Shown here: positions 8,346 through 64,000 of the stretch, piece after piece | Layout of the letters: every line of letters starts with the position of its first letter | How positions within the stretch are numbered: the stretch's first letter is position 1 | Source of the DNA: Gnetum montanum | Taxonomy: Eukaryota > Plantae > Gnetophyta | NCBI GenBank assembly: GCA_015680685.1 | Contig: MNCI01002192.1 | Location: 189,237 to 253,236 of the forward strand | Direction of reading: 5' to 3' | Length of the DNA stretch: 64,000 nucleotides | Notes under the pieces: model-generated | The model's input: only the letters and a program-made list of their open reading frames with translations | Told to the model about the DNA's origin: nothing | Databases searched by the model: none | Position numbers and translations under genes: made by a program

Positions 8346-9126
8346 ATAACTTCTTCTACTCATCACGAAGCCTTAGTAAAGGTGTTGATTTCAATTCCTA
8401 GTATTAAAAACATCCATGCCAATGAAAAGTCCATCCATGATACTAGTTTCACCTGGGGAGGAAATGAAGTCAAATGTACTATTGTTTTGTGATAGTGAAG
8501 TTAAAAGTAATCCCCAAGATAGTGAGATAATAAGGGTCCCTCTCTTCATAACTACAAGGGTTGGGCAATACTAGGTAGACAGGGTGCACATTGATGATGG
8601 ACTAGCCACTAATGTTATACCTTTTACCATTATTGAAGGGTTAGGCCTAGCGAAGCACATTCAAAATAATTCTACCTTTGTTTTTAAATTCTTTAATAGA
8701 TCATGGATGGTAGTAAAGGGTTTGATTTCACTAGACTTTGTAGTAGGGGAATAATTCCCTACATCAGCCAACTTCTAAGTGGTGGAAGAAATACTAGGAT
8801 TTAACCTCATCGTGGGGAGGTCTTGGCTAACTGATTTATGAGTAGTTTCCTTTCCCATTCACCAAGAAATTCACTTATATTATGAGGGAGGTGAAATATT
8901 TATTTAGGATGATAATGTAGTTCCCTTGGTAGTCAATAACATGAACATGGAGAAAGTGTTTGAAGTGGAGTTTCAAGAAGAAACACCTACTATCAAGAGT
9001 AAAGTCAAGAGGCTTGAAGGAGTAGATCAAGCCAAAACCAAAGATAACCAAGCTATTGATGCACAATGGAAAGGGCTCCCATTCAACATGGTCAATGAGA
9101 AAAATGGAAAATACAAGATTATATAA
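8346..9126 (+). pseudogene. gag C-terminus / aspartic protease remnant (Ogre/Tat type)
   Basis: Manual translation gives SSTHHEALVKVL...PLFITTRV..VDRVHIDDGLATNVIP...FNLIVGRSWL..VVSFPIHQEI, matching the Ogre/Tat RVLIDNGS..N / YNLLLGRPWIH..AVPS.LHQ pattern. Confidence 0.8.
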
Positions 9127-21358: not shown

Positions 21359-21373
21359 TCCAATAGTCATCCA

Positions 21374-26140: not shown

Positions 26141-26144
26141 TTGA

Positions 26145-26248
26145 GTACCCAAAAACTTAAAATTTTAAGTACCAAAAATTTTAAATTTTCTAAAAATTTG
26201 AAGTACCCAAAAATTAAAATTTTAAGTACCAAAAATTTTAAGTTTCTT
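26145..26248 (+). repeat. Reiterated AAAATTTTAAGT(ACC/TTC) junction filler
   Basis: About five imperfect copies of a motif also present in the PLE UTRs (13865-13895, 16866-16882, 23029-23046). Confidence 0.75.
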
Positions 26249-28162
26249 CATTCATGTTCACCTAGTCTACTTCCTTAAGGTTGAAAACAATTGGGATATT
26301 CCTCTACTTGATATTAGTCCATGCTAAAGGCTCTTGTGAAAGGGTAGTAGTAGTTGCCTCTGTTGAAGTAGTAGTAATCTAAGGAGCTAAGAAATCAAAC
26401 ACCACTACAGAGATTTTAAATAGCTTAAAGGCCTTCTTTGTGTTGATTTCTTGCATGAACATCTTCAACTTTTGGCTCTTTATATCATCCTCTTGTAACC
26501 ACTTATAATAACTCTCATTTTATACCTTCTATTTGTGCTTGTGTTTTTTTTCATGTATTGCCCCCCTTAAGGACCCAAGCATAGTAGTCTTCTTAGTCTT
26601 TGATCTTACGAACTAACAAGTCCATCTAGATATCATTTTTTGCATTTCTCCTAGGTAGATCAACCTTGCTATGGATGGGATTCTTGTAGTGTGGTCATTC
26701 TATCTTCTTAGTTCACAAGGAGTCTCTATTGTCTACACAAGCCTCTACAAACTTCTTATGGTTTCTAAGGTCTCTAATCTCCTCTGCCTACTACTTGGTT
26801 TCTTTCTCCAATGCTACAACTCTCTCTCATAGGAATTTCTTTGAATGTTGGTATTCCCATGAAGTCTTGCCACATGAGAGGGCACATTCAATGGAACACT
26901 TGTATAACCTTTGTGGAACATTTTCTACTTCAAGCGGTAGTGCAAGCAAGTTATCAAGATCAATGTTATGTTCAGGGTCCCATCCAACCTTAGACATTGT
27001 AAGCAACATAACAAAATTTACATATAAAGACAATAAGTAAACAACAGAAATAATAAAAAATACTTTAAGCAACTAAGATCATGTAACCATAAAACATTAA
27101 AAGCCATAAAATATATATATAACAAAATATATAAAAATATATAAAGAATAAAGTAATTTAGGCAAAGCATTCTATTGTTCTTACCAACATCAAGAGTAAT
27201 ATGTTGCAACTGATCAATCATATCTTCAACCATACCATGCATAAAGTCAATCTTATTAGGAACCTCATCCCATGGTTTCATACAAAATATGGAGTTGGAT
27301 GCCTCTAGAAAGGGTTCAAACACTACAACAAGTATAACCATAAACTAAAAATTAAAATCAAATTTAACATGAAACTACATGATACAACACATAAACTAAA
27401 ATGCATAAATACCTGGAGGACCATGCAGGATGTCAATGTGAGTTTCATCATCAAATTTTGAATCTTCAAATATGGTATCCAAGGCATTCAATGCTTCAGT
27501 AGGTATTAGTTCATCATCCTCTTGTTGCCTTAGTGCATTCTCTTCTTGGTGTTTTCTCTATGCCTCTACAGCTACTTGGGTTGCCAGTTCTTGTTGTTTT
27601 CCTATAAGAATGACAAAGAAAAAATATAGAAAAAATTAGCAATTTTGCCTATATAATTAACATGATGACATAAATGTGCACATAACATAAAGAATATGCA
27701 AGATACCATAAAAACCAAGCATAAGAAAATATTGAATTAGAACATACCTAAAAAATTTGACGTGCTTAGTTGATCCTAAGGGATATCTTCTTTTTCACTA
27801 GCTACTCAACAACAATAACCATCTCTTCAATTAGTGGTTGCTTCCACTTTGCTTTGGTTGAACCATTAGCCTCAACACACAACTCCTTAGCTCTCTTAAC
27901 ACTTCCACAAGAAATATGGAGCTCAATTCCCATGTTGTTAGGAAAAGAACAATGTACACCACTCAATTTCTTAGTGGTAATAGATAATGATTCCTCAATA
28001 TCTTCGACTGGTGGGTTTTGAACCTACATGTCTAGAATAATATGTTTCACCCAAGGTTTGGAAAATTAGGATGGATCATGGAATATCCATTTTCCATCCT
28101 TCTTGACCACTGGGAATTCTAAGAACCTCCTTAGATATGCTACTAGAAATGCAAAATACAAG
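26244..28162 (+). repeat. 1.92-kb direct repeat, right copy
   Basis: Collinear with 10275-12195; continues into the uninterrupted exon at 28163. Confidence 0.92.
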
Positions 28163-31100
28163 TGGCATATTGTCTCAAGGTTGTTTCAGAATTTTGGATC
28201 TCATCCTATAGCCCAGAGACCTATTGAGTAGCCTAGTTAACCTTAGCACCTTCGATGAGGACCTTCTTCATGGTCCAAGCTTGTTGAATGCTAAGGATCT
28301 TCTTTTGCAATATCAACATGGGTAACGACCTAGAGCAAAACAATGGATACATCTCATTAACTTTTATTATGTAGCACTAGTCTAGAGGCAACCCATTGCT
28401 ACCACGATGAATGCTAAGCCATTCTTTGATCTCCTCTCTATGATCTATCCCTTTCCCTACCTTTATGGAAACCTTCATGTCATCAAAAGGTATGCCAAAT
28501 AAGACATTAAACATGGATTAATTGATTACCAAGATGACATGCACACTATTAACATGAGAGATGAATTTCTTAACTCCTTTTTCAAAAGAGTTAATGACAT
28601 TTACCATCTCTACAATAGGCATGGATGGGCTAGGAATCATAATTAGATTGAGCAAACCTGCATTGACAATCTTTTCCTAGATCTCTCTAGGTGCTCTACC
28701 AGTTGATCACTCTTGTGCTAAATCTACTTTGCCCCACTTAAGAATTAGTGTCTCCTTTTCACCTCCCAAGGTGATTATGGAAATAGTAGATTTAGGCATA
28801 AGATCTAAAATAGAACATGAACAACCAATTATCCTTTAGAATAAGCACACCACACAAGTAAAGTATATATATAACAAACATAGTAAAAAATCAAAATTAA
28901 ATTTTTAACCACATAGTTAAAACCCATTAAAAAATTAAGGCCTAAACAACTAAAAAACAAATAGAGAACATTAACATTAATAATCAAAAAATTAAAAAAA
29001 ATAAAAACTATTAAATTTTCTTATCTAGTTTCAGTAATGTAGGGGGTCCTAAAAGCCACAAGTGCATGTATGCCTAAGTCAGAAAGGCCCCACTAAATAG
29101 GAACAATCCTATTCACCAAACACTTGTGGTAGACTTTATAGTAACATGAAGTGTATATTCTGAAGTCATCCCTTAGTTGCTACAACACCATGAGTCTCAC
29201 ATGGGACCCTTGTGTAAAAACCTCCAATGATGTGTGTGCCAAGGGTAGAACTTGGTCACTCTTGATTAATTCTTCATTGTGCACTTTATACCTACACCAT
29301 AAAAATTCAACAAAAAAGTCTTAGGATAAAATAGTCTAATGAAAATAACAAGTGAAAAAAAAACATAGAATGGCACTTATGCTTGTAACTAGTATATAGT
29401 GCCAGAAGGATTTTGAAATAAAGTGTGGACTTGATGGCCTATCATTAATTTGTTGTTCACATTATACAAAATAAACTCAGGCATATCCCAAATTTGGGAT
29501 AACTTGTGTGTTCCTAGTGTGCACATATCATCGTGATGGTCACATTCCATACAAGTGGTAGGGCAATCTACCATGAACTTGACAATGAGACTAGTAGGAT
29601 GGGGTAGCAAAGTCTTTTCAATAACAACTACAGTGTCAAAGGCCAAGTGTAATCGTAAGATTATACTAAAGTTCTTCAATAGGAATGCTAAGAACTCTTT
29701 AGCCCTAGGCCTAAACCAAGGAGAACTATGATCCAAGACCATGTTAGGTAGCAAACTATTTGGTCCTAGGATATTTATGTAGCATAGAATCCCAACCATT
29801 TCAATTACCATTAGGATGGATTTCAAAAAGGCTCTACATAACCAAACAAAACCATTAAAACATAAAAGATTAGTAAACAAAAATTAACAAAAAATAAACA
29901 AAAAATGATGAATATAATTTCAATTTTCAAATATTAAATTCAAAATAAATTAAAGGCAAAATAATAAAATACAAAACTTCAAACTATCAATATTTTCACT
30001 TAAAAACTATGTAGAATATCAACACAAAACATTTATGAAAATCACATAGTTAAATAATGCATTAGAAATTTTTACATTAAGCATTAAAATATGAGAAAAA
30101 TACTATAATAAGTTTAAAACCATGATTAAAAATGTGTTAATGGTTGTGAAAATTTCAACTTAAGTTTGAAAAAATGTTGACTAGAAATCCTAGTTTATAG
30201 TGAAAAAACTATAGGAAAGTTGGATAAAAATTTCAAGAAGATTAGATAGATATTGAGAACCAAAATAAGCCATGTAAATGACCATTAGAGATCTTAAAAT
30301 ATCCAATAAAACATAATAAGTATAACAACACTACTAGTGCAAGCTGGGAAGCTTGCATGCTCAGCAAGTAAAACTACAACTGTATAGGGTAGTTCATGTG
30401 AACAATAATTTGAAAACAAAATTACCAAAAATTATTTTTCTAAGTTTAGGAAATGTAAACATACATAATTTAAGAAAACTTCTATACCAAAATTCCAATA
30501 ATGGGCATAGAAAAATTCACATTGTCGCTTGGAATCACTTTGAATTTTTTTCAAAAAATCTGGTTTGTAGTGAAACCTCTAGGAAAATTATGAGAAACTT
30601 TTCAAAAATTCTAAAACCTATTTAGAACCCTACTACACTATCCCATAAACCCTCAAAAGACTAGGATGTTCATAGAAAAATAGCCAAAGTATGCCAATGC
30701 TACTAGTCTTCGAAGGCCAAAAATAGCATTGTGCTTTGGTCTATGGAAAAAATCATAAGAAATTAACTGTAGCTCCAAAAATAGTGATTCAACCATTGAT
30801 GAGACCATTAAACACCATAGAATAACCTTATGGCATGAAAAACTAGAACTTTTATATCTAACCCTAATAAAATATTGTAAAGTTTAAACATTCTTTGGTA
30901 ACAAATTGTCAAAAACACATAGGATGGGCCAAAAAAATTCATAATTTTATAAAAAGAGTCCCTAAGGTTAAAATCACAACATGAGTTCATCAAAATAACC
31001 TAGATGCTACATTTAACACATATAAAACCAAATTTTCCCAAACACAAACCTAGGCATTACAAAATGCCTTCATACTACAGTAAAAATTGGTTGAAAATAG

Positions 31101-31859
31101 TTAATGAAGGGTACTTGGCAATCATGTTGGAAGAGCTTTTCTAATGGATGGTAATGGGAGGTGGGTGATTCCTCTACTAGTAGCCTTTTCCTCCTCTGGT
31201 GCTAAGTTCCTTTTGATTCCTCCTCTCCTCTTTAACATCTTGCAAGGATGAGATGAAATCTTTAGTTTCTTTATAACTACGCTACCTTGGTGATGGGAAA
31301 TAGAAAAAAATACATTGACTATGGATAGAAATATGGTAAAAAATGGCTGAAAATATTGTTTAACAACCTCTACTCCAAGAAAAAATCTAGAAAAAATAGT
31401 TTTCATAAAAATTCCAATGATGAAGCCCTCCATATACGTATGCATTAGTACGATAACCTTCACATCCAAAATGCCTACACAACATCGAGTGAACTCAATG
31501 GTCACATATGAAAAGTGATAAATATGCTAGGTTTACTTGGTTTTGAGTTTCAAATAATCTTTTAACCTTGGGTAGGCCCCATAGGGTTCCTCCTAAATAA
31601 ACCACAAAAAATCCCAATACAATGGGATTTATAATTTTAAACAAAAAATACACTAGGGATTAATGCCCAAGTAAACATTGAAAACTTGGAATGGATTCCA
31701 AGATCTATCCATGGTGAAGGTACATCTTCTAGCTATCCATGATTGATCCATTGTGGTTAATAAATTCCCATCTCAAACTAGAAATCCTAGACATTACCAT
31801 AAGAGGACTCTAGTTTCTAATAATGGTCAAAAAAACCCCTAAAACAAAGAATTCCAAGC

Positions 31860-33242
31860 ATAAATACATTGCCTACAAGAAAAGATACATTGGCTAGTGT
31901 ATTTTTACAAAGAATGGTGATGACTTGCACTAACCAAACCTCCAAGTAACCTCCAAATTACTGAGCCAAATCCCAAACCCTAACTAGAGCCTCCAACAAC
32001 TCCAAAACCCTAGAGACCCTATTAAAAGTTGTTAAAATCCACATATCCTTCAAAAGTACATTGGTATGAGCATTAAATACATTGACTAGTGTATTTTTGG
32101 AAGATGAGACATAAAATCCATCCATAATACCTTCAATAGTCTTCAATATTGCTAACCCTAGCCTTGACACCTACCTAGAGCCTCTAGTAAACTCAAAACT
32201 CTAAATGACAAGCCAAAAATAGGATAAAATTGGTCAAACCATGAAAGATATAATGGGATGAGATTAAATACAGTGGCTAGCAAATAAATTATAGGAACAA
32301 CTAAGAAAAATCCATGAACCAATTGAAATAGCCTTCAAATACCTCACACCAGTCACAGAATCCATCTAGAGCATCCAATAGTCATCAAACTTTGAAAACT
32401 AAGTCAAGAAGTGGTTAACAGTAGTAACATCCTCCAGAGATACATAGGCATCAACACTAAATATGTTGGCTAGTGTATTTTGTAGAGAAGTGACCAAACA
32501 GAGTCTCCAACAACCTCCTAGATCATTGATTTTAAGCCTAAACCCTAGTCGCAGATACTAGTGATCCCATAAGTTACAAAACCAAGTTTATTAATTATCC
32601 AAACTACCTAGAAGACATAATTTAATGGAAATATATTGACATCAACACTAAATACATTGGCCAATATATTTTTTGTTTTAATGGTAGTTTTGATAGCCTT
32701 ATGAAATTCTAGATTACCTAAAATTTAACTAGAGAAGCCTAGAACCACAAAACCTAAAACTAGTTGCAACTTGACCTTATTTTTAGCATGAAAAGTTTAA
32801 ATTTCATTATTTATATGTTGGGGTAATGGAAAACTATGCTGACTTGCATATTTTTGAATTGGAGTGCTCGAAACTACACTTTCATTGATCTATTACGACT
32901 TCTAAATGATCATTCTACAACCTTGAGACCCCTTCACTATCCAAGAAGATTGCTAAAGCTAAAATTTCAAGTCTAAAGAATCATGGAATAATTTTTTCTA
33001 AGAAAATACATTGGCATCAATATTAAATACACTAGCCAATGTATTTTCTAGCTCTTGGCAGCATGTAAGGCCTTTAGGAGGTCAAATCAACACCAAAATT
33101 AACTAATCCTTCCTCATAGTCCATTGCACTAACATTTTAGGATATTAGAACCTAGAAACTATTCTAGAAGAATCATAGAAATTAAATGTCACTAAAATAT
33201 ATGATGGGGCCTGCAATAAATACGTTGGCTAGTGTATTTATT
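31860..33242. repeat. ~192-bp-period array of palindromes AAATACRYTGGCYARYGTATTT (8 units)
   Basis: Palindrome centres at 31892, 32084, 32275, 32468, 32659, 32841, 33034 and 33227. Confidence 0.8.
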
Positions 33243-33884
33243 ATAAGTGATAGCACATTTATTCAAAATGCTTTATTTTTATCTTCAAATTGGCTCAAAA
33301 TGATCTCCCTGAGTGCCCAAGCATTTTTATTAATCTTGGTGCCTCCCACCATGGTCCGCTAAGGCATAAAATTGGAAAAATGTGACCTTGATTGACCAAT
33401 ATTCACAATGTTTTACCACATGTTACCTACCTTTATTGGTTTGGCCTTATTCCACTATGTTTTAGCTTGATCTAACCTTGTTTCACATTATTGTCTATCA
33501 TTTCCATATCATTTGGTGTCATCTGATCTCATTTTCATCATTTCTATAACATTTGGCTCTATCCCACCATAATTTTCTATCATTTGACATTATTTTAACT
33601 TAGTTGACTTGATTTGACATCAACTAATGTCATACTTTAATTAGACCTTATTCAAACTTTCTTGACATCATTTTATGGGGTTTGACCATCATTTGGCCTT
33701 TGTTTCAAATTATTTGATTTAACCTACCCCTTATAGCCTTTGTTGACCATGTTTGAACCTTTTTTAACCCTTTATATATTGTGTTTTGACAAATATAGGC
33801 ATTATTACACAATTTTTTACATTGACACCATTTAATAATTTTATCACATAGGTGTTACTCAATGTGCTTATGGAAGATTAGATT

Positions 33885-36800
33885 ATGGATACTTGGATGT
33901 AGTTTAGTTTACCTCTAATCTTGAGTAAACCTCATATTGATGTTGATTGATTCATTGACCTTAATTACTTAGATCTTGAACTTGAAAGCCTAGGCGATTA
34001 TATAGCCTCTATAGAAAAGCCTCTTGAATGGCCTAAACATTTACTTAAAACCCTTAACCTTAAGGCTCGCAATATTACTGAAGACTCTCTAGCTAATATT
34101 TTAGTTATAATGCATACTTGGTATGAGAAATACCATTGAAACTAAGTTTCTTAGTTGAACCCTAGTAGGCCCAATAGGTCACCAAGGTCCTTTAAGACAA
34201 CATTAAGATCTTTGCCTAGTCATATGAAGATATGCCAGGTGTTGATCCATGCCTAGTGCAACACAATATTATACTTGATCCTAGTATTAAGCCAATTAAA
34301 TAACAGGTTTACAAAATTAGAGAAGATCTAGCCCTGGTAGTTTGTGATGAGATCATAAAACTCTATTAAGTAGGTTTCATTCTAGCTATTGATTACATGG
34401 ATTGGGTGTTCAACATAGTGGTAGTCCCTAAGACAAATGGGAGTATATGTACTCGCATCAACTTTCAAGAACTAAATAAGGTAGCTATTAAATACAATTT
34501 TCCTTTTACTAGTATTGACCAACTCATCAATACTATGGCTATATATGCCTTGTTATCCTTCATGGATGGGTTCTTGAGATATAACTAAGTTAGGATTAAC
34601 CTAGACCATCAACTTTATATGACTTTCATGACCCCTTAGAAAAAATTTTGTTATACCATGATGCCCTTTGATCTAAAAAATGCAAGCATGACCTATCAAT
34701 GAGCGATGACATACATATTTAGTGACTAAATGCTAAGGTTACTTAATGTTTACATAGATGACATAGTGGTTAAATCTAAGTGGCTAATAATCATGCACAT
34801 GATGTATACTTGGTGCTTAAATGATTCCTGAAATATGAACTTAGGCTTAATCCTAAGAAGTGTGTTTTTGGCATTAAAACTAGTAAGATGCATGGTGTTG
34901 TAGTGTTCAAAGTAGGAACACATGTCGATCTTGATAAGATTAATGTCATTACTCACTTGATAGTACATACTAATCTTAAGGAGCTTTGGGAACTACAAGG
35001 TAGATTGAAATTTATTCATACGTTCATCTCAAGGCTTATGGATAAGCTACAACAAATGAAACACTTGCTTAAGAAAGGAGTTCACTATAAGTGAATTTCC
35101 CAATGCCAATAAGTCATCAATAAAATTAAGCAAGAGTTGGCGATAATAGTTGAGTTTGACCTACACTACATCTCCCAAGCGTTAACCAAAGGTCAAGCTA
35201 TAGCTTCATAAATCACAACTTTCTCTGTTGAAGACAACGCAACCATAGGCTTTGAATTCCTTGATGAGCATATCAACATTATTATTGAGGTACTTGAGGA
35301 TTACAAGGCCATCAAGCACTTTTACGGGGCCTCAAATACTCATGGGGCTAATGTTGCTACCATCTTAACATCATATTTTGATGTAATCCAACCCTTCACT
35401 TACCATTTTCAATTTTCAAGTATCAACAATGTGGCAAAGTATGAAGAATTAATCAAAGGAATAATGGTAGCCTATGACCAACGAATCAAATGCCTATGAT
35501 AAGAGTTGATTTACAACTTTTGGTTAACCAAGTAACTAAGGTTTATGCATGTAAAGCCAACCATTTATAATGCTACTATGACCTAGCTAATAAACTAATG
35601 CAACAATTTATAGATGTTAGTATCCAACATATACCATGAATCGAGAACACCTTAGTTGATGCCATTGTAACTTTGGCCCTAAGTGTGATGCTAGATGTGT
35701 TTAGCAAGTTACCTTTGTTAACCATGAACTGTACTACTTCCATCACATAGAACACTAAAGACATCTCTATAGCCATTGTTAATACTATTCCTCAAAAAGA
35801 ATGCTATGATGATATTACGTTTTATCTAATTCATGGTGAATAACTACTTCTCAAAAGGACATTGTGCATAAAATATTAAAGTAATATATCATTGTAGGAA
35901 ATAATACACTATGTCAAAGGTCTTATGATGATATATTATTAGTATGCTTGGGCAAAACTAAAGCCCACACACTTCTTGAATAACTTCATGAAGGAGTATG
36001 TGGAGTACATATAAGACCTAGAATCATGGCTATAAAAATTAGAAGATTAGGATGCTATTGACCCTATATGGAAAGTGACTACCTATAGAAAGTTAAGACT
36101 TATGATACCTATCAACAACATAGCAATCTAATACATGTGCCACAAACTAAGTTACATACTACTCAGGTAACTTGGTCATTTCAATGATGGGGACCTAACA
36201 TTATTGGACCTATAATGCCTAAGTATTCTGTAAAGCATAGTTTTATGATCACTAATACTGAATATTTTACAAAGTGGGTTCAAGCTATTCATCTAAGGAA
36301 AACAACTCCTAAACAAGTCTATAGATTCATACTAGATAGCATAGTAGCTTGTTTTGACATACCTCTAACCATAATCATAGATAATGGACCACAATTTAGT
36401 AGCCAAGAAATGCAAACCTTTTGTAAAGAACTAAGCATTAAGAATTTTTTTTGTCATCATATTATCCTCAAGCCAATGGAAAAGATGAAGCTGGTAACTA
36501 GGTAATCATAAACTTACTTAAAGATGCTAAATAATAATAGATGTAAGTGGCATGAGTGGCTTATCCATGCACTTTAGTCCTATAGGACTACCTTTCAAAC
36601 TACACCTGGTGTCACCCTATATAGCCTTATTTACAAATCCCAAGTTGTTTTACCTCTTGAATTGTAGGTTCCATTGCTAAGAGTGGCTTTATTTGACTTC
36701 ATCAACAATCAGTAGAACAAGGATTTGTGTGCAATCAACCTAGATTCGATGGAAGAGTAGTGAATAAAAATACTTTTTAAAATCGAATGATACTAATAGA

Positions 36801-37027
36801 GGCAAAAGCAACAAAATTTTCATAATCTAAATAAGCAAAAGATCAATAAAGGATACCTAGTCCTCAATACTATTCACAAGCATGTAAACAAGTTCTTAAC
36901 CAATTAGAAGGGGCCTTTCTTGGTTACAAAAGCCTATGGTAATAGAGGATTCAAATTGGCAGATAGGGATGGGAATGAATTGGCCAATTTGGTTAACCAT
37001 TCCTATCTTAATTATTATTACATCTAA
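33885..37027 (+). pseudogene. pol: pol (RT, RH largely deleted, aRH, INT) of element B
   Basis: LLSFMDGF, YIDDIVV, EYFTKWVQAI and DNGPQF motifs; collinear with the pol regions of A and D. Confidence 0.9.
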
Positions 37028-38128
37028 TGTGATCTTCTTTATAGGTGTGAATGAACAATTAACATTGATAACCTTTACAACTAAATAGCAAGCAAGCCTA
37101 CATACTATCTCTCTCTTTCTCAATCTCTCTCTATGTTTGGCACAATGAATGAGTTGTAAGCTTTATAAAATTTGATGCACATCACATACATTTCTCAATG
37201 TTGCACTAGTGGTAACCTATGGTAGTCTATGGTTTTGGTAGTTGTCCCATGTAGCCTTATGTAATATTTTATAACAACATGTCTTCTTTATCTTGTTTCC
37301 TTGGAATTGTGCTTATAGGATAAAGTCTGGAATTCATCATGAAGGTGTAACTCATCATGACAGCAAGCCATCACATGACCTTGATGCATAAGATGTGGTT
37401 AGCTTCTCCTATTGTATCAATAGTGCTTATCTTATGTCACTTCCATTACCCTTATTAAGCCATAATCCCATATCCTAATTACAGCTTCATTATCCTAAGC
37501 AACAATGATGATCTATGTTTGACATGCATGCATAATGACCATGTAACATCCCTTTCATCTCATCATGCTACATCTTCAAGCTCATTGGGTGTAACACATT
37601 TCTTTTAATGAGAAAACCAAACTAAGTTTTGCCTTCACACTAAAACCCAATGAAGGTTTCACCAAATAAAAACTGGAGAAATAAATTGCCAAAGAATTCA
37701 TTAGGCCAATGAAGCTTAAAAGGCATATCAATAGCTCCAAACTAGCAAAGGAAGTCTAATGATCAAAGAATCCTTGGATCAGACTACTAATTTTTCAAGA
37801 ACATTACCAAGTAACCAACACTTTAAAGCACAAAGCATAAAGACTACACCAATTAACAAGCATGTCACTACCACACCATCACCATGATGTCAACATGTGG
37901 AATCCATTGTTAATCCCTATGACCATTCCCTTGTAACTAACTATAGCTTTTATCCTATATCATTCCATCATAACCCTATCTCATCATCAAAAGTACTCTT
38001 TGACATGGTTCGATAGCTACAGAATCAAATGTAGAGAGAAATGTTGGTGATAAACCTATGGTGATGTTTTGCATTCTTTATTGATGTCTCTTAGGTTAAT
38101 CCTCAAAACATCAACAAAGAGGAATAAA

Positions 38129-42880: not shown

Positions 42881-42892
42881 TTTCTGCCCCCT
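42881..42892 (-). promoter_or_regulatory. Polypurine tract of C
   Basis: AGGGGGCAGAAA on the minus strand abutting the LTR. Confidence 0.85.
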
Positions 42893-43076
42893 TAAAAACT
42901 TAAAGAACTTGTGTAACTACATTTCAAGCTGAAACATACTGAAATTTTCATTGAATTTTTACATTCAAAAGAAATCTTTTTTTGAGGAAAATTCCCATTT
43001 AACATAAGGTGCAATGGGATAAGAACCTCATTCCTAAGAAAAATCATAAACTGTACATCATCAAGTCCTTCATGGA

Positions 43077-43589: not shown

Positions 43590-43931
43590 TAGCTCTCTCT
43601 AACCTTCACTACCAAACTTGAAATGAAAGATGATGAAATCTTAAGCAATCTAACCCTCCTTTTATAGGTGCTAAAAATTTGAACTCCCATCCAAGTGTCT
43701 TCAACCAAGCTTCCTTCTTTTTAGGAATTTAAAACATTTGTCACAATCCTCACCAAGTGGTGAATGAGTCACTCTCCCCACTTGTCAAACTTGTAGAATT
43801 CCACTTGTTTTACTTATAGGCTTCCACTTGCCCCATTTGAAGGAAAGATAATGTTTCAAATATAAATAAAGCATAATTACTAGTAATATTTACATGATAC
43901 TATATACATATATTATTTTTGTGTAATGACA

Positions 43932-49141: not shown

Positions 49142-49234
49142 GAACTGAAAATAGTATCTAATTCTTAAGCCTTACAAATAATTGTTGATGTACTAAAAGT
49201 ATAAGGCTTATGAACCTAGAGGCTTAATTTTCAG

Positions 49235-49251
49235 CCCTCCTTCTAGCGCCA
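49235..49251 (-). promoter_or_regulatory. Primer binding site complementary to plant tRNA-Asn(GTT)
   Basis: TGGCGCTAGAAGGAGGG, 7 nt from the 5' LTR. From memory, plant tRNA-Asn ends CCCTCCTTCTAGCG-CCA. Confidence 0.85.
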
Positions 49252-49258
49252 AAAGAAC

Positions 49259-52200: not shown

Positions 52201-52345
52201 TAGAACACTTCAACATCAAGATTATTTATCATTGGCTTGCTTCCCAACAACTCACAATATTAAACTGCAAATCTATAACCAGGGATTATGCTCACTTTGA
52301 ACAAAATGTTCCAACTGTTCCATGTAATGGCCAAATGTGCCAACA
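49259..52345 (-). repeat. 5' LTR of element C (3087 bp)
   Basis: Terminal inverted repeat TGTTGGC/GCCAACA; TATA-like CCCTATAAAAAGG at ~50458-50470 (-). Confidence 0.95.
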
Positions 52346-53640
52346 CTTTCCAAGCCCATATATAGACATAATAGAATATTTTCCACTTGGGAAGTGAGGT
52401 AGTAACAACTTATGAGGAATTTTTCAACCCCAAAAAGTTAAAGTATGCAAGATCATAGCTCATGGGCTACTAACCTTAAATTTACAATGAACTTTTACCT
52501 TAAGTTAGATGGTGAAAGTTACAGGTTACAATATGTGTTTTTAAGATGATGTTTTATTGGTCCCTCATTGTTGATGTTTGGAGGATTGACCTAAGAGACA
52601 TCGACAAAGAATACAAAACATCACTATAGGTCCATCATGAGCATTTCCTTTCTATGCTTGATCTTGTAGTGTTGAACCATGCTAAAGAGTCCTTGTAATA
52701 ATGGGATAAGATTATGATGAGGTGATAAAAGTTATTAGTTACATTTGGTCATAAAGAAATGGTCATGAGGGTTAGCAATGAGTTCAAATGTTGACATCAT
52801 GGATATTGTTATGGTGTTGACATGTTGCATAATCAATTGAGACTTCATGCTTCGTGCTTTGAAGTGTTGGTCACTTGGTAATATTTTTGAGGAACAAACA
52901 CATCCCTCCAAGGTTTGTTAGGCTATTAGGAATCTTATTCATTTTCTTCCCCATTTTTTTTCAAGGTGAAACCTTCATTGTATTTTATTGCTAAGACCAA
53001 GCTTGACTTGATTTTCCCATTGAGCAGAATGCATTACACTCAATGGACTTAATGGTTTTCCCATTGGATGAGATGTGTTACATTCAATGGACTTGTAGCT
53101 GGAGCATGACAAAGGAGATGTCAAATGGCCATAATGCATGAGTGTCAAACATAGGTCAATATTTTTTCTTAGGGTAAGAAAGGTTATAAGTAGGCTATGG
53201 GGTTGAGCTCAAAGAATGGTAATAGGAATGAAGTGAAATAAGTACTCTTGTCATGACAGGACAAACTCATCAAACCTTATGCATTGATATCACATGGTAA
53301 CTTTCTGCCATAATGAGTTGCACCTTTGTGATGACTCTAGGCTTCATCCTAAAAGAACAACTCCAAGAGAATAACACAATGAGACAAAGGAATCATGTTG
53401 TCACAATACACTGCATAGGATTACATTAAAGGATCATCTAACCAAGCCACAAAATGTCATAATGATTACACCCAATGACGGATTTGCATCTTGCATTACA
53501 TATGTTACAAAGTTTTTTAGTTCAATTGTTGTCCAAAAAGAAATAGAGAAAAGAAAGTGGGCTTACTTGTTATTGGTCATCATGGTTATGGATGTCAATG
53601 TTGGTACCTACAAAGAAAATGTGTTAGATATAATAAGTTT

Positions 53641-56600
53641 TTAGATAAAATGATTTATCAGATTCGCCAATATATTTCCATCCATTTCTACTATCCAGAA
53701 GGCTCAATTGCTGTAGGTCTTGGTGATCAAGAAAGATCCTTTCCAATTAGCTAAGAACTTGTTTGGATGCTCACATATGGCCTTGAGGACCAAGTCCCCC
53801 TTCTTGATCTTGTTCTTGTTTAGGTTATGGCAATGTTGTTGTTTTTCCCTCTACTGGTATCGCTCAATGTGAGAAAATTTTCATACTTGTTTCTCCTCCA
53901 CCAAGTCCAAGCCACAATACATAGATCCTTATTCTATTCATTGTTGATGATGTCTGATAGGACTACTCCTAATGATGGAAGCTACAATTCAAGAGGTAAA
54001 AAAAACCTTAGTATCATAAACCAGGTTATATGGAGTTACACTGATTGTAGTTCGATAGGTTTTTTGGTAAGCCCAAAGCACATGGATAAGCCACTCATCC
54101 ACGTACATCTACTATTTTTAAACATCTTTCTAAGCAAGTTTATGATGGGCTTGTTGCTAGCTTCAAATTTTCCATTGGCTTTAGGGTAGTACGATGATGA
54201 AAAAAAATGCTTAATGCCTAGGTCATGACAAAATATTTTCATTTCCTAGTTGCTAAATTTTGGTCCATTATCTATGACTGGTTATGGATATGCCAAAATA
54301 GGCTACTATGTTATCAAGTATAAATCTACAAACTTGTTGAGAGAGCATCTTCCTTAGGAGAATAGATTCAACCCACTACGTAAATTAAACATTTGCAATG
54401 ATGTTGAAACTATGTCTTATAAAAGACTTAAGCTTTATGGATCCAATGATATCCAATCCCCACCACTAAAATGGCTAGGTTATCTAAGTAGTTTGTAACT
54501 CAGTTGGTGGCACATGTATCAAGTTACTATGTCATTGAAAAGTGTCACAAGTTTTAACCTTCTTTAGAAAGTCATTTTTCATATAAGACTAGTAATATCC
54601 TAGCCATCTAATCTTAGTAGCCATGGCTCTAGGTCCTATATGTCCTCCACATATACCCTCATGAACTTGCTCAAGGACTGTGTAGACCTCAATTTTGTCC
54701 ATTGACATAATGTATTATTTCCTAAAATGACATATTTTTTTAACAATTTACATATGATTTCCTTTTGAGAAGTAGTCAGACCATGTGGAGATTCATCATG
54801 CATAAGGTAAAACTTGATATCATGATACCATTCCCTTGGAGGGGCAATACTGATAGAGGATATAAAGCTATTTTTAGCATTCTACATTATGAGAATAACA
54901 CAATCCATAATTAAGAAATGTAAATTGCTAAATACATCAAGCATAACACTAAGAGCTAAGGGCACAATGACATCAACTAGTATGTTCTCAATTCATGGTA
55001 CATGTTGGATATCAATGTCTATGAATTGTTGCATCATTTTCTTACCTAGGTCATAGTAAGGATATAAATGTTGGGCTTTAAATACATAAAACTTGGTTAC
55101 TTGGTTGAACACAAGTTATGAACCACCTTTGATCATTAAGTATTTGGTTCATAGGTCATGAGCTACCATCATTCCTCTAATCAATCCTTCATACTTTACT
55201 ACATTGTTGGTACATGGGAATTCAAAATGGTAAGTGAAGGATTGGAATTCACCATATGAAAATGTTATGATGGTAGTAGCACTAGCCCCATGAGTTGTTT
55301 TAGCTCTATGAAAGTGCATGACCACCTCATAGCCATTAAGTGCATTGCTAATAATGTTAATGTGCTCATCTAAGAATTTGAAGTCTATGGCTGCATGGTC
55401 TTCTACATGTGAAATAGTAGGCTGTGTGGCTATAGCTTGACCTTTCATTGATTCTTGAGAAATTTAATGAAGGTAAAATTTATCTATTATGGATTTCCGA
55501 TAGGATATATGACTACTTTTATAAATGTTGGTCATTATGGCTCGAAGTACATTGTCTTTGCAAATGATGCTAACCTAGCTTCCAAAAAGGTAATGTTACC
55601 ACTCCTTTAGTGAGGAGACTAAGGCTAGAAAATACTTCTCTACTTTAGTGTATATGGCCTCATCAGCAATTGGTGCATGGCTTAAGTAGTATACAGGTAA
55701 CTCTACTTCATCATATCATTTCTAATAGAGTAGAGAGGCAATAGATGTGTCAGAGCTAGCAAGGTAGATGTAGAAAGGCTTATCCTCTTATAGAGGATAA
55801 ACTATTGGTAGTTTTCCTAGCTCTTAATTAAGGTTTTCAAATGCTTCTTGGCATTGAATCCTCCACTCATAGTGAATTTCTTTCTTAAGCAAGTATTGCA
55901 TGTATTGTAACTTATCCATAAGTCTAGCGATAAACCTACAAATAAATTGTAATCTACCTTATAATCCTCAAAGCTTTTTAAGGTTAGATGGTGCTGCTAA
56001 GTTTGATATGGCTTAAACCTTATCAGGATTGACATGTATTTCCTCTTTGGATATTATAAAGCCAATAATCGTACAAGTTTTGATGTAAAAAATACACTTC
56101 TTAGGATTAAGCAAAAGCTTGTATTTGAGACATCATTTAAGCACAAGGCCAAATTCATGGACATGATTATATGCCACTTTGGACTTAATGGCTATATCAT
56201 CTATGTAGTCATTGAGCAATCCTAGCATATAGTCAGTAAAGATGTATGTCATAGCTCTCTAGGAGGTTGCTCCTGAATTCTTTAGGCCAAAGAGCATTAG
56301 TGTATAGGAAAAGGTACCCCAAGGGGTCATGAAGGTCATACTAAGTTGATGTTCTAGGTTAATCCTAATTTGGTTGTATCTTGAGAACCAATCCATGAAG
56401 GATAATAAGGCATGCCTAGCCACAGTATTGATAAGTTGGTCAATACTAGGCAAAGGGAAATCATCCTTGATGGTTTCATTATTTAGGTCTTAAAAATCCA
56501 TATAAATATGTATACTCCAATTTTTCTTAGGGACTACCACTATGTTGGATACCCATTTTGTGTAACTGACAACTCTAATGAAACTATCTTGGTATAGTTT

Positions 56601-57072
56601 TGTGATCTCATCATGAACTACCAAAGGCTAAATCTAGCCTAAACTTGTGAAAATTTTACTTAACTTGTCTAATGCTAGGATCAGGTATGATGCTATGTTG
56701 GACTAAACATGGGTCAAGACCTAGCATATCTTCATATGATTAGGAAAAGACCTTAATGTTGTCTTGGAGGACTTCAGTGATTCCTTGAGCCTACTAAGGT
56801 GCTAGCAAGAAACTTAATTTGAGGGTTTTCTCCTCACCACTATGTGTTGTGACAAGAACCTCAACTAGAGAGTCTTTGGTAATGTCACTAGCCTCTAGGT
56901 TGAGGGTTTTGACTAAAATTTTAGGCCACTTTAAAGGTTTATTTATTGAGACTATGTGGTTGAAAAGACTCTCAGGCTTAAGATCTAGGAAATTAAGGTC
57001 AATACATTGTTCAACATCACCATGAGGTCTACTTAGGCTCAATGGTAAACTGATTTTCTTACAAATGTCCAT
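53641..57072 (-). pseudogene. pol: pol (RT-RH-aRH-INT) of element D
   Basis: LLSFMDWFSRYNQIRIN, PCTNNVVKYEGL and YYPKANGKFEASNK motifs; many stops. Confidence 0.9.
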
Positions 57073-57819
57073 ACTCCAATCCTACATATCCACCATAAGC
57101 ACCTTAAGTGGCACTTGGGTAAAATAAGAAAATAATGCAAAAATGATTTAAAATATGCTAGCAATACGCATGGATTAATCAAAAAATTCTATTTCATGGT
57201 CAAACAAGATGCAAATAAGGCTAATAAAGGCTATAAGATGTAGGTGAAGACAAATAAGATGAAAGAAAGACCACATGAGGTTAAATAAAGGCTAAACAAG
57301 GTAAAAAAATTGAAGCATAATGAAAGTAGGAAACATAGGTCAAATGCAATCACCTATGGTTACACTTAGTCAATTTTAGACCTTAGCAGGCCTTGTTGCT
57401 AGTTTAAGGCCCTAGTGGGCCATGGTTATATGGTGTCAAATTATGGTCAAGTATGGTCAAACCCCACCATCTAACACTAATCAAAGGCTAAAAAAGATCA
57501 AAAAAGGCCACAAGATAGAGAATAAGGTAGATATGGTGAAACTAGAGCGAGGTAAAGTCGAATGAGGCCAACTGATGCTAATAAATATCAACAATGCATA
57601 GCAAGGCCAAAATAAGTCAAAAAACCATGAAACAATGTCAAATCAATCATGGTGAAAAACATGGAATTAAAGAATATCCACATTGGTCAAACAAGGTTTG
57701 ATTTGCCATTTTAAGACCTTAACAGACCGTAGTAGAGGTCTACAAGGCTATCAAAAGAGTTTGGTCACATGGTGGCATTGTTTTAGGGCTATTTGAAAGC
57801 AAAACTAATACCTTTTGAT

Positions 57820-60015
57820 GTGACTATGCTAGGCTCTATTAGTGACTACATTGGCCAGCATAGTTAGACTAGGCCGTAGCATAATTGACATCAATAGGTG
57901 GTTTCCCAAGTTCATCATGACCAATTTTGGATTTTAGATGGTTAGTATGGGCAAAACTGTAGATTGAGATTGAAGATGGATGGATTTTGGACTCCATTTT
58001 CACCCCCTTGGATGTTGGAAATGGGGTTAACATTGGTGACTACATTGGAACTACACTAGCTAGCATAGTCTAGGCCACCTCAAATGTAGTTGCATGAGAA
58101 AAATATGTTTAGGAGGCTTTAGAGTTGCTACTGGTGTTTTGTCATATTCCTAGGGTAATGTAGGACTTTGAAAGATCTGAATGGGCTTCTTGGAGGCTAA
58201 AACAAGATTTTGAAAGTGAGATCTTGTATCAACACCTCATGATGTTGGTCATCATAATTAAGGGTTGTCTCAACGTAGGCAAACCAAAATCTAGATTTTC
58301 CATGATTTAGAAAATTCAATTGCAAGTGGCTTCATGGTTTTAGGGCCTAAACTTCTAGCATTAAGTTTTAATCTATTTTTTTTGCTACTGTAATGATCAA
58401 GACATCTTGAAGCATGGAGTACACTGGGACAATGATGGCTAATGTAGTCATAGGGTTTCCTTAGCATAGTCACATGAAAGCTAGTCTTCCCATGATCAAA
58501 ACAATGCAAAATCATCACTAGGCTATGTCAATTAGGGTTTTAGGTGTCTTAAATTACATTCTTGGCCATTTGAGATGTTAACACACTAATTTCAAGAATT
58601 CCCAGCCATGAATACATTGGGACTATGTTGGCCAACATAGTCATGGCTTGTTCCAATGTAGTCATGTTCAAAATATAGATTTTGGCATGTTTCTATGGTA
58701 AATTGACTAGTTTCATGGGTTCCTAGCATTTTTGGTACTTCTGGTCAGGGTTCTAACTCAATATGGATGATTCCCGAGGTTATTGAGGCTTTGAAATGAC
58801 CATTTCCTACTATGACTATGCTAGCCAACATCGTTGAGCCTAGCGTTAGCATAGTTGGAATGGATCTAGTTTTTTCAAGGTCAGAACAAGATGAATTTGC
58901 AATTTGGTGAGGCTATACAAGGTTTTGGGTTTCCAATCTATGTTTTGGATTGTTTTCAGTGTCAAATCACTAGTCAAATCAACCTTAGATCATGGCCACA
59001 CTAGGACTACATTAGCTAGCATAGTCTAGGCTTGCTCCAACATAGTCACAACATGGATTTTAAATTTTGGTGCAATTCTATGATCTATTGATTGAATTTT
59101 TGAGTTCTAATGTCATTAATATTAGAAATTAGGGTTTCATGCTTGAAATTATCAATTTTGATGGTTAATTTAATTTCATAATGATCAAACACCATTGGAC
59201 TACACTAGCCAACATATTCACAATTGGTTATGTGGAATGTATGATGACTTTTGGCTATTTTTGATTGAGATTATAGTGTTTATAGGTCTCTAGGATATTC
59301 AACAAGGTTTTGGGATTGGTCTGGTGTTTCCAGAAGTTGTTTTGACAAGTTTGAATCCCATTTTGGTGTTTTGGAAGTGTGACTATGCTAGGACTACATT
59401 GGCCAACATAATCACAAGCCTCCTGAATGTAGTCACATAATGAAAATGAAATTTGGCTTATTTATAATTCATAGTTTGTCAATGCAAGGTTACCAAATGT
59501 CCTAGAGAAGTTTGGAGATCAAAATATGGTAATTCAGAGTCTTTTTATTTATGTTTGTCAATCCACCCTAATCCAACTATGCTAGGACTACATTGGTTAG
59601 CATACTTAGGGTTACGTCCAGTGTAGTTTATAGTGTGAAATGGAATTTTACTAGTTTGGATCATTAGTTTACTATTTCAAGGCTACCAAAGGTTCTACAA
59701 TGAAGCTGATGCAAAAATGTGTTAGTTGGAACTTAATTTTAGGTAATTAATGGTTATTTCTTACTCAACCTCTAGTGACTCTATTAGCCAATGTAGTTGA
59801 GGTCTCCCACAGTGTATTCAATGCAATAAAATTGGGTTTTGATGGTTTTTGATAGGTATCATGCAATCTTGACACTATTGAAGGTCTTGGATAGGGTTTA
59901 GTGCATGGTGTTTCCATTCTAGAGTCAATTTGGATTTTAGTTGATGTTTGGAAACCTCTTCCAATTGGTGACTAAGCTACCTAGTGTATTCAACCTATTG
60001 GTCAGTGTAGTTGCC
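57820..60015. repeat. ~192-bp-period array of palindromes GACTAYRYTRGCYARYRTAGTY (12 units)
   Basis: Centres at 57853, 58058, 58247, 58437, 58630, 58823, 59014, 59207, 59401, 59595, 59786 and 59979. Confidence 0.82.
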
Positions 60016-62318
60016 ACAAATGACATGTTTTGGAATCGGTTTCTACCTACCTCATTGTCTGGTTTCCATCAATGTCAACAACTAGTTTCCTATTTTGGAC
60101 ATAAGGTTTCATGACATGGATGGATAGTTTGGAGGTTAGTTGAGGTAGTAATTGGATTTTGAAATTTATTTCAAGGCTTCTAGGTGCTTGAAACTTAGCG
60201 TAGTCATCCTAAGAAGTTGAAAATCCAAGCATATTAGGATTTTCATTAGCTTTCTTCCTAGGTTCCTAATGGGGTCCACCTTAAATTTAATTTTTTTATG
60301 CATTAGTTTTCCACTCACCTAGAATAATCACACTTATTAATTTTCATCATTGAGTTCAATGACACTTGGAAGAGTGTTTTGGAAAACCAAGGATTTCCAA
60401 GGAGCTGCATAAGTTTGAGATTAGTTTTCAAAAAACAACTTTACACAAATCATTCTCTTCTTACCACTCTCAAGCTTCAACACCTTGGATCAAAGCTTGG
60501 CACCTAATTTAGCACCTACAACCTTCATCCCCAACATAATTGAGCTTTTCTACATAAGGATGCTAGTGTAGTTGCTTCAGAAGGCTCAAGAACTCAAAGA
60601 TTTTAGCTACTCCTATGTTGGTTGCACCATGTCGAAGAGAAGAGCTTCCATCACCAAGAATCCTATCATTGAAAAGGTTGATGCTACTATCCAAGGCCTC
60701 TATAGTCTACCACAATTGCTTTTTTTTGAAATCTCCATCACCATGATGCCCACATACATAAGTTCTAAACCTTTTGCTTGGAATTTTCCTTTGGAACCTT
60801 GGCATTTTTGGTTATAAGGCTTTGTGTGGTGGTTAATTTTGAATTTTGTAATAATCCTACTTTAAATCTAGGAATTTTATGGGTTTTTGGTGTTTTTTTT
60901 TGTTGTGGAACTAGTTTGTGTCAAATTGAAAAATTATTTATGCTATTTTTGGACATTTTGTGGGTTTTGGATAAAAAACGCAACATCAATTTTGGATTTT
61001 CTCCTATTCAAATGGTTTGGATTTTTTTATTTTTGTGACCATATGGTTTTAGTACTATATTTAATGGTCAAGTGGAATTTTAAACCACATAATTATTATT
61101 TACAGTTAACTCTCTACAAATTTTTGCATAAGACAATGCAAAGTGGGTTTCCAATTTTGGTCATTTTTTACATGGTACATTCATGTTGTTTCACTTCATA
61201 ATGGTTAAGAATTTTTTAGTTTTAAGGTTTTTGGTTTTTAGTATTTTTTTAAAGGATTCAAAAAACTATGGAATCATTGAATTTAGATGTGTAGTTACTT
61301 TTTGGACAATTTTTTCCTATACTCACATAAAATGGGATTTTGTTGTTATGGTCTGGTTCATGTCACTTTGACAACGTTTCTTGCAAAAATGGATGGAAAT
61401 TTTTATGGTTTCTACTTTTGATCTTTTAGCTTATGGTTTAAGAATTCCAATAGCTATGAAACCACTAAATTTGGTTACATGGTTAAGTTTTAAAGAATTT
61501 TTTGAAGAACTAGTGTCAAAGCATTATCTTCTAGTTATGTTTTACCCATGTGAAGATGGGTAGTGTTGGCATGTTAGAAACTTTTTCCAGCCAACGTCCC
61601 ATGGTCTTGGGTATGCCTTAGTATGTTAGAAAGGGGTTGGAAGTGGTTTAAGCTAAGTTAAAATATGTTTGATATTTTTTATGGGCTATTTACTATGGCC
61701 ATTTTCCATAGTTTTGGTGTTGTTGTGAAGTTTTTGGTTGAATGTTATCATAATTTTGGTTGGTGTTTTAAATTTTTTTAAAGCTTGAAATGCTACTGTA
61801 GTTACCTAATCCTATTGAATTTCGATGCCCAAACAATTTCTAGCATTAAAAAAATTTTAGTTATAATTTGTCATTTTCATATTGGTGTAAATTGTTTTGT
61901 ATAGTTGTAGTTTTGGTAATGAAAATTGCAAATGTCCTTGTATGTACATGTAGCATTGCTGTTGGTGTTGGTGTTGAGTTTAATAGTTTACAAATTTTTC
62001 TACATGTTGTTTTTTTTTAGTTTTAAATAGTCATTCTAAACTTTTAGCAAATTTTAACTAGGCCTTCTACAGTTTTTACTATGGCTAATTTCACCATTAA
62101 CTAGGATGCTTAGTAAAAGTATGAAAAGTTCAAGTTGGTGTTTTGACTATTGTACTTGATATAAACTAGTTTTAGTTTATGCACATTTTGATGTTTTCAC
62201 ATAAATATTTTATACTTTTATGCATATTTTAGCATAAAAATTTCCATTAGTTATTGGTAGGCCAATTGGTTGTACATGGTTTTTAGATGGATTGGCTTGA
62301 AGTGACAACATTGACATC

Positions 62319-63618
62319 TGAAACCCCACAAAATTTCAAGTCTTAGCATTGCGACTACAAATTTGGCTAAGTGTCAAAATGATGGCACTTTCAGCGTAGC
62401 ACCATGTTACACTATGCATCATAGTGTAGCATAGCACCATGTCACGCTATGTAGTGTAGCATAGTGTAGCATAGTTTTTAAGCTATACAGTGTAGCTAGC
62501 TTGACCCTACAAGTGTTCCATGTCCCACATGTATCATGGGATGAGCATAAGCATGGTCCCATCCACCGCACTGCCACATGGCACCTAATCCACATTTTGG
62601 ACTAACCCTAGCCCTATGAATATCCTGGGAACCCAAGAGTTACATTCCTAGACCATTGGCATTCCCCAAGGGTTAGCATTCCATGACTATTGGCATTCCC
62701 CAATGGTTACATTCCTTGACCATTGGAATTCCCCAAGGGTTGGCATTCCTTAACTGCTGGCATTTTCCAGCGATTACATTCCTTAACCATTGGCATTCCC
62801 CAAGGGTTAGCATTCCTCGACTGTTGGCATTCCCCAACGATTACATTCCTTGACCATTAGCATTCCCCAAGGGTTGGCATTCCTTAACTGTTGGAATTTC
62901 CTAGCAATTACATTCCTTGACCATTGGAACTCCTCAAGGGTTGGCATTCCTTAACTGTTGGCATTCCCAAGTGGTTGACATTCCTTGGATGTGAGCATAT
63001 TTTAAGCACTTGGCATTTGGCATTTTGGGCATCTTGGCACTAAGCTCCATGGGAAAACGAGACCCAGAGCATACCATACTAGCAAGGAGGTATAGTTGCA
63101 CATCATAGCCCCCTATAGCCCTATTGTAGCCCTACAAAACATTGCACGGTACATCCCGATGGCCAACCTGGTAGGCACAGTTCATCACGACGAGTACCAG
63201 ACTTCACGACCCAATGCCACGAAGGCTATGACTATGCTCCTACTATGCCTATGGTACATTGTGTATACCTTTGTGAATTAACCACACTCCCTCTTTTGGA
63301 AAGTTGCATTTCCTTACCCAAATTCTCATTCTATTTTGTCATAACATATATTTTGCATTATTAAGTATTGATTCACATTCATTGTCCTGGTTACGTATGT
63401 CGCTATGCTTCTCTAATTCCAACCTCCATGTGTTACATTCTAAATTCATTATTTGTAAATGGTTATTGTACACCACATAAGTCCTTGTTTGATTGACCAG
63501 ACTCTTTAGGGCATCCCATTTCCATTTTCCCTAGCATGGCCCTTGCATGGATTAGGGGTTAGGCTGTGCACCTAATAACCTTTCAGTGTTCCAACCACTG
63601 ACATTTTCGAATGCTACA
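62319..63618 (+). repeat. 5' LTR of element E (family related to A)
   Basis: TGAAACCCCACAAAATTTCAAG...ACATTTTCGAATGCTACA; ends homologous to 6532-8345; followed by a PBS. Confidence 0.8.
62640..62985 (+). repeat. 67-bp (34+33) tandem repeat inside LTR E, ~5 copies
   Basis: TACATTCC at 62641, 62708, 62775, 62842 and 62909; built from TTGGCATTCC submotifs. Confidence 0.92.
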
Positions 63619-63623
63619 GTTTT

Positions 63624-63640
63624 TGGAATTAGAAGGAGGA
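63624..63640 (+). promoter_or_regulatory. Decayed tRNA-Asn-type PBS of element E
   Basis: TGGAATTAGAAGGAGG versus TGGCGCTAGAAGGAGG, a few nt after the LTR end. Confidence 0.6.
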
Positions 63641-64000
63641 CATGAACCATTTCTATCTACATTTTTTATGAGCACTTGGTCAAAACTCTGAATGTTCTAG
63701 AGAGCACAACAAGTTCTCAAAGCGTAGCAAGCTATAGCATAGCAAGCTCCAGCATAGCGAGTGTAGCGCTAGAGTTGGCCATTTTTAGTGGTTTTCACAC
63801 TTAGCATTTTTTTCTGCATTTTCATACTTAGTGTTTTTTCTGCATTTTTACACTTAGCCACTTTCCTGCTACTGGTAGATTTAGTCATTTTTTTTGTAAT
63901 TTTTAGAGTTAGCCATTTTCTGCAAATAGCAACTTTCACAACCCGATCTATGAATATGAATCTAGATCAACCTTCCACATTGGTGTCTAACACATTTGAC

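Follow-up and report, generated by a model that had tools for sequence, protein, structure and literature searches.

Why would a decayed retrotransposon carry a row of regularly spaced palindromes, and why would the outer arms of these palindromes differ in step between two related elements? The question is raised by a 64,000-nucleotide stretch of Gnetum montanum DNA (contig MNCI01002192.1; hereafter the window), plant repeat DNA depleted of CG and CHG sites and made up of nested Ty3/gypsy elements, here lettered A to E. In element D, 12 palindromes of 22 bp lie between 57844 and 59991 with a period of about 192 bp. They start at 57844, 58049, 58238, 58428, 58621, 58814, 59005, 59198, 59392, 59586, 59777 and 59970, at successive spacings of 205, 189, 190, 193, 193, 191, 193, 194, 194, 191 and 193 bp, and ten of these eleven spacings have an SD of 1.6 bp. 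Sites scoring at least 13 against the 22-mer of the initial annotation number 19 in the window (12 in D and 7 in B), compared with 0–2 in each of 30 Markov-resampled windows, and a two-unit pattern gave four matches and none in 100 shuffles. The starts, the spacings and the resampled-window counts thus confirm the twelve units at 189–194 bp, with a single gap of 205 bp, that the annotation had described. The array lies upstream of the RT of a decayed Tat (Ogre-like) Ty3/gypsy element, in a spacer whose counterpart in element B separates the protease from the RT. The coordinates of the features are collected in Table 1.

Table 1. Features discussed in the text and their positions in the window.
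Feature	Position	Strand	Remarks
Gag end and protease	8346..9120	+	same strand as the RT of B, probably belonging to B; A inserted just before
Element B pol, RT-RH-aRH-INT	33852..37030	+	
Element D pol, RT-RH-aRH-INT	53620..57114	-	decayed; contains stops and frameshifts
T-rich tract ending in a decayed CAG followed by GT	57115..57821	-	candidate 3' splice site before RT, predicted from sequence
Element D array, 12 palindromes and flanking half-sites	57822..60012	.	period ~192 bp
Eleven D spacers, 146–151 bp (one of 162)	57887..59969	.	predicted nucleosome cores; WW period 10.0–10.1 bp phased on the centre
Element B array, 8 palindromes	31862..33239	.	AAA/TTT arms; orthologous to D units
Element A, third version TGC-TACGCT-N4-AGCGTA-GCA, five sites	6910..7517	.	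spacings 187, 192, 144, 63
Isolated D-type half-site	60195..60205	-	aligned to an isolated B-type half-site, 31646-31656
Half-site just before antisense start	60563..60573	-	aligned to B 31276-31286, which likewise has an AAC arm
Putative antisense accessory gene of D, first coding piece	60629..60817	+	
Putative multi-exon antisense gene of B	26300..31238	-	decayed; no family match
Element E, LTR related to that of A	62371..64000	+	A-type half-sites; interrupts the D antisense gene
Motif with GACCTTAAA core	9470-9510, 33340-33370, 57366-57420, 57702-57730, 953-1130, 4975-5150		

Contigs from four DNA runs cover the D array with many divergent pieces. Among 40 of the 1864 differences listed, other contigs carry the motif base at positions where this copy departs from it (58832, 59781, 59980 and 58249); therefore, the array is characteristic of the family, and this copy probably lost the motif bases through later decay. 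A pattern scan of viral contigs gave no stretches. The same scan of metagenome contigs gave two, both unrelated to the element: a 20-bp satellite in a marine metagenome contig (L001, 1560-2860), whose unit fits the degenerate core by chance, and, in an angiosperm-like contig (L002, 10001-10290), a tandem duplication of 191 bp that has a short palindrome.

Most departures from the D motif are of the methylation type. Over its 264 cells, C>T or G>A changes account for 59 departures and other changes for 12; the A/T columns are unchanged in 92 of 96 cells, and none of the 24 CpGs is intact. Element A, which is less decayed, retains TACGCT and AGCGTA, and this supports the CG inferred for the D motif. 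Between B and D, the purine/pyrimidine identity of the core is 0.94, and transversion divergence is 0.097 in RT-RH and 0.11–0.23 in spacer blocks. The motif core is thus conserved between the two elements to the same degree as RT, while the spacers fall to 38% identity.

Elements A, B and D share the order RT-RH-aRH-INT, with RVT_3/RNase_H found after RT_RNaseH in A; the position of aRH between RH and INT is an Ogre feature. The best 120 RT matches are plant gypsy polyproteins of 41–56% identity, with RT before aRH in 67 of them and the reverse order in none. On an RT tree built with 40 of these 120 matches as unlabelled references and with an unresolved backbone, A, B and D form their own long-stemmed clade (support 100/97), in which B and D are sisters (99/93); among these 40 references, their RTs were not placed inside an angiosperm clade, an Ogre trait. 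Element C (41055-52348) is young, with LTRs 95% identical, a gag-protease-aRH-RT order and two assembly gaps nearby. Both RH orders co-occur in gymnosperms, according to the available passages of PMC10508981 and PMC13468544.

The protease lies 24.7 kb upstream of the RT of B, and no pol domain was found in 9300-33860. The possibility that B and D have no gag and protease was rejected: the long spacer and nested insertions have moved both away from the RT. The 5' ends of B and D are interrupted or fall outside the window. In A, B and D, homology in the RT frame begins after a T-rich tract, at CAG, TAG or CAA, and then GT; no splice donor was identified for the protease–RT spacer. As judged from these sequence features, the spacer fits an Ogre-type intron between protease and RT, such as that described in the accessible part of PMC4408406. 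Inside the spacer of B, a 16-kb block (10275-26243) consists of direct and inverted copies 83–93% alike, among them 35-bp tandem repeats and a portion of the antisense gene. A second short motif, with a GACCTTAAA core, occurs near both ends of the protease–RT spacer and just after INT; since contig depth in the bin 57388-57534 is far above that of the array, this motif is likely common to many Tat families.

The repeating unit consists of a 43-bp cluster of half-sites and a spacer, which measures 146–151 bp in 16 of 18 cases. In both B and D, the cluster comprises the palindrome and a half-site 21 bp upstream, and D often has a fourth half-site 22 bp downstream. The spacers carry a pronounced helical periodicity. 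In D, AA/TT periodicity exceeds all 300 of 300 run-shuffles; in B it is weaker, and 12 of 300 shuffles reach the observed value. The strongest of the 1-kb bins tested is 58001-59000 (z 9.4); a 10-bp AA/TT periodicity is also present in non-coding DNA next to the arrays (30001-31000, 33001-34000 and 57001-58000; z 3.6–4.6). When 16 of the 18 spacers were pooled and centred, leaving out those of 139 and 162 bp, the best period was 10.0–10.1 bp (R 0.86), with the WW peak lying about 5.5 bp from the centre and the SS peak about 0.5 bp. Under the usual phase convention relative to the dyad, the spacers agree with the published description of nucleosomal DNA, an AA/TT periodicity of about 10 bp with antiphase GC over about 147 bp (PMC4081404, passages available). 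We infer from the sequence that the unit has the layout of a nucleosome core and linker, with occupancy being predicted. The nucleosome repeat length of Arabidopsis peaks at 170–180 bp in the accessible text of PMC6685187, below the 192 bp found here, and the value of this host may differ. Nucleosome-linked mutation bias could alternatively have written the periodicity, which would still imply positioned nucleosomes. Between the sites of A, no clear periodicity was observed.

The eight units of B are spaced by 192, 191, 193, 191, 182, 193 and 193 bp. The initial annotation had stated that B and D share a core and that the outer arms changed symmetrically (GAC/GTC versus AAA/TTT) across all units. 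The shared core and the differing arms stand, and 'all units' goes a little too far: with the units read in the orientation of the element, column 19 has the D class in 12/12 D units and 0/8 B units, the extra half-site in 10/12 and 0/8, and column 2 in 9/12 and 1/8. The right arm has an identity of 0.83 within B, 0.84 within D and only 0.32 between them. The corresponding values are 0.42, 0.33 and 0.29 for the 10-bp linker and 0.26, 0.25 and 0.26 for the flank.

This change appears to have occurred in place. The spacers of B and D resemble each other about as much as they do within each element (mean z 1.87 between, 1.59 and 2.04 within). They intermix on a tree in which 1 of 15 branches is well supported, and a tree holding B together is rejected (p-AU 0.00065); the arms therefore switched in place, in orthologous units. 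Amplification of the array from one mutated unit is rejected on the same tree. The alignments B1-D1, B4-D7, B5-D8 and B6-D10 reach z 6.8–7.7, and the terminal units of both arrays are anchored by flank homology. Together, these sequence comparisons support the orthology of the B and D units. Outside the array, the aligned pair of isolated half-sites switched type too, and the half-site adjoining the antisense start did not. B-type half-sites also occur far from the array, in the 3' region of B (38545-38663).

A third version of the motif is found in element A, and the core TACGCT/AGCGTA is common to all three lineages. Neither this version nor the extra half-sites and the periodic spacers had been noted in the initial annotation. 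Counted outside pol as B, D and A types, half-sites number 17/1/1 in B, 1/26/0 in D and 0/0/21 in A and E together, counts that describe rather than test the sorting, the types having been defined on the sites then counted and the sites within an array being non-independent. Five resampled windows gave 0–5 half-sites per type. The comparison covers three lineages in one window, with one copy of each and the LTR of E. The 3' LTR of A (7400-8335) and the LTR of E (62371-63620) are related, both with dense A-type half-sites upstream of a TATA-like box, and E has a 67-bp tandem repeat. The annotation had read the concerted change with preserved spacing as the product of a co-evolving, subfamily-specific pair of protein and site. 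The sequence side of that reading holds: the switch took place in orthologous units, the linkers and flanks were not homogenised along with the arms, and the three versions sort by lineage.

A candidate for the protein side is an antisense reading frame near the array, whose start codon, orthologous between the two elements, lies 645 bp from the first palindrome in B and 638 bp from the last palindrome in D. The N-termini of the two frames are identical at 12 of 28 residues, a match reached in 0 of 2000 shuffles. The B copy continues to about 26300 as alternating T-poor and T-rich blocks; in D, element E interrupts the copy at about 62370, and most of the gene lies beyond the insertion. In the antisense pieces tested, Pfam gave nothing credible in a scan covering little of the duplicated block 12200-26240 or of B's 3' region, a sequence search of the PDB gave no match for the antisense protein, and a HMMER search with a B piece returned one repetitive, cysteine-rich dinoflagellate protein, rejected as spurious. 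Profile and sequence searches of the decayed frames found no DNA-binding domain, and no match to DUF1985 or DUF287. A resemblance of the B piece to the PMD/DUF1985 group is conceivable, but none of these searches supported it. A single-sequence structure model of the protein was unusable (pLDDT 39.7). A search with a second antisense ORF gave no match among 136 candidates, and the decayed 3' pieces tested from A and D have no Pfam match, TRP28 included. In the 3' region, a block with an inverted repeat (6459-6538, ~38050-38130 and 52550-52629) is 80% identical between A and D, exceeding their RT; it might form a hairpin in RNA or belong to a second antisense gene.

We propose that the row of palindromes is, with good probability, an array of DNA sites. 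In a fuller model, for and against which we see the balance as even, the array is phased by nucleosomes and serves a dimeric, likely element-encoded protein that opposes silencing. The 10-bp-periodic spacers of about 149 bp would hold twelve positioned nucleosomes, and each 43-bp linker would likely have a sequence-specific dimeric protein bound to it; half-sites separated by 11 and 21 bp would lie on the same face of the helix, which fits the predicted protein binding. The binder would likely be the product of the element's own antisense gene, working in a VANC-like mode, and once bound would keep the element transcribable despite host methylation. A shift in the specificity of the protein would select the same change in every site, and such a coordinated site change would prevent cross-activation between subfamilies or escape small RNAs directed against the old motif. 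The anti-silencing role is suggested by analogy with the VANC and PMD proteins. The lineage-specific arms make an element-encoded binder more likely than a host-encoded one. More tentatively, and with some doubt, a lineage of LTR retrotransposons may build its own phased chromatin, combining positioning sequences with linker sites for a novel element-encoded binder whose gene lies inside the protease–RT intron, protein and sites switching together.

An alternative that we find unlikely keeps the same nucleosome-phased layout and has it recruit host transcription or chromatin factors, with the subfamilies having changed to another host paralogue or drifted at weakly read outer bases. All the architectural evidence fits it equally well, as do the core common to the three lineages and the antisense frame in which no DNA-binding domain was detected. 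However, the arms are strongly conserved inside lineages and differ between them, which one fixed host factor would not demand. To our knowledge, the motif geometry is unlike canonical NAC or LFY sites.

Could the array be a degenerate tandem repeat that requires no protein, its motifs homogenised by short gene conversion or template switching, and its spacing and periodicity dating from the founder? The units are homologous, and tandem arrays are common in Tat elements, according to the available passages of PMC11963269. The spacers share ancestry, so the periodicity could be inherited: when spacers drift neutrally to the observed 38% identity, 40 of 40 runs that begin with an ideally periodic ancestor recover the signal, compared with 0 of 40 that begin with the best real spacer. 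The linkers are also slightly more alike within B than between the elements, so some conversion is possible. Nevertheless, conversion tracts would need to be about 11 bp long, skipping the linker yet reaching isolated half-sites. Homogenisation ends at the motif edge and the core is as conserved as RT in spite of the diverged spacers, which favours selection on the motif over conversion. The tight spacing of ten of the eleven D intervals, with indels between spacers that are small and often offsetting, also speaks against this explanation. The two halves of a palindrome did not decay in mirror fashion (47 of 100 cases, 52 expected), so hairpin repair is not evident after insertion. We therefore regard this explanation as rather improbable.

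We give little credence to a role at the RNA level, in which the palindromes act as hairpins or kissing loops in unspliced genomic RNA, for dimerisation, packaging or export, and are read by Gag or a Rev-like antisense protein. Such a role would leave the centre-phased 10-bp periodicity and the 192-bp period unexplained, the unpaired half-sites are lineage-specific too, and Rfam gave no matches. It would agree with the location of the array in a likely intron, where it would mark unspliced RNA only, with the self-complementary central four bases in B and D, with the folding of a two-unit stretch at z -2.45, and with the use of palindromes in retroelement RNA dimerisation (PMC6844567, in the text available). 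Finally, the idea that the palindromes, being rich in CG and CHG, serve as a methylation sensor or as bait for self-silencing and tie the antisense promoter to the host silencing state is scarcely credible as a separate explanation: CG and CHG sites occur on both motif strands with cytosines decayed at 24 of 48 of each, and Sirevirus palindromes are siRNA hotspots (available part of PMC4728375), but fixed A/T columns and lineage-specific arms are not needed for it, and it is compatible with the nucleosome-phased model rather than exclusive of it.

The closest working parallel to the proposed model is VANC, a protein that binds to dense arrays of motifs in the non-coding DNA of the transposon it belongs to (PMC5735166, accessible passages). 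VANC-VANDAL shares with the present locus the dense short motifs in non-coding DNA, the subfamily-specific versions, the divergence of multiple units together, and a fast-evolving multi-exon accessory gene, which is putative in B and D. In contrast, its host is a Mutator-like DNA transposon rather than an LTR Ty3/gypsy retrotransposon, and its motif is a 9-bp word in the same orientation rather than a 22-bp palindrome. Here, unlike in VANC-VANDAL, the spacing is fixed at one nucleosome, the spacers are periodic and the arms changed in place in old units; DUF1985/DUF287 gave no match, and binding is predicted from sequence. The array is thus not a member of that system, but may have a VANC-like working mode. 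The available parts of 10.1101/2024.09.27.615353 and PMC13547354 describe PMD-C as similar to the DUF1985 of VANC, link MAIL2 to a palindromic motif, and state that retrotransposons encode PMD-A. MAIN, MAIL1 and MAIL2 with their M1M/M2M motifs parallel the model in having a transposon-related protein, a palindromic motif that opposes silencing, and protein and motif changing together; they differ in being host genes acting through single promoter motifs and on Polycomb rather than methylation, and PMD was undetected here.

Among Tat elements, the RT-RH-aRH-INT order, the separation of protease from RT in Ogre, and the antisense extra ORFs and tandem arrays of Retand are all similar to the present elements (PMC6317226, PMC4408406 and PMC11963269, passages available). 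Unlike Ogre and Retand, A, B and D group in an RT clade of their own, and their array and antisense gene occupy the region separating protease from RT, instead of following INT or preceding gag. The Retand array units measure 8–100 bp compared with about 192 bp here, where neither PMD nor TRP28 was matched. Gymnosperm Tat clusters J/K (structure #1) have the same dual-RH order, in genomes that also contain an aRH-before-RT element, as C is here; this comparison is by description only, the available passages of PMC10508981 and PMC13468544 containing no account of non-coding regions. The Sirevirus LTR palindrome region likewise has fast-evolving palindromes in the regulatory DNA of a plant LTR element; it belongs to Copia and lies within the LTR rather than in a Ty3/gypsy spacer, and the accessible text of PMC4728375 mentions no nucleosome-length phasing. 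Tat antisense ORFs and tandem arrays are already known (PMC11963269 and PMC6317226, in the passages available). In the literature searched, which included few subscription papers and no supplements (where Tat J/K structures with this spacer may be shown), neither a nucleosome-phased palindrome array nor an antisense gene between protease and RT was described. The CENP-B box in alpha satellite is also a protein site in a nucleosome-length repeat; it is centromeric, is bound by a host protein and lies in far more homogeneous units.

If the more tentative reading, of a lineage that builds its own phased chromatin, is true, the array and its antisense gene would play for a retrotransposon the part that VANC plays for its DNA transposon, and would provide a function for the extra ORFs and repeat arrays of Tat elements, which is stated as unknown in the available passages of PMC11963269 and PMC4408406. 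The locus offers a defined candidate site in three natural versions, together with a predicted nucleosome register, and thereby makes the function of Tat ORFs and arrays testable. It is also a natural case of many sites changing in step. The model would further suggest how these elements remained active in heavily methylated giant plant genomes.
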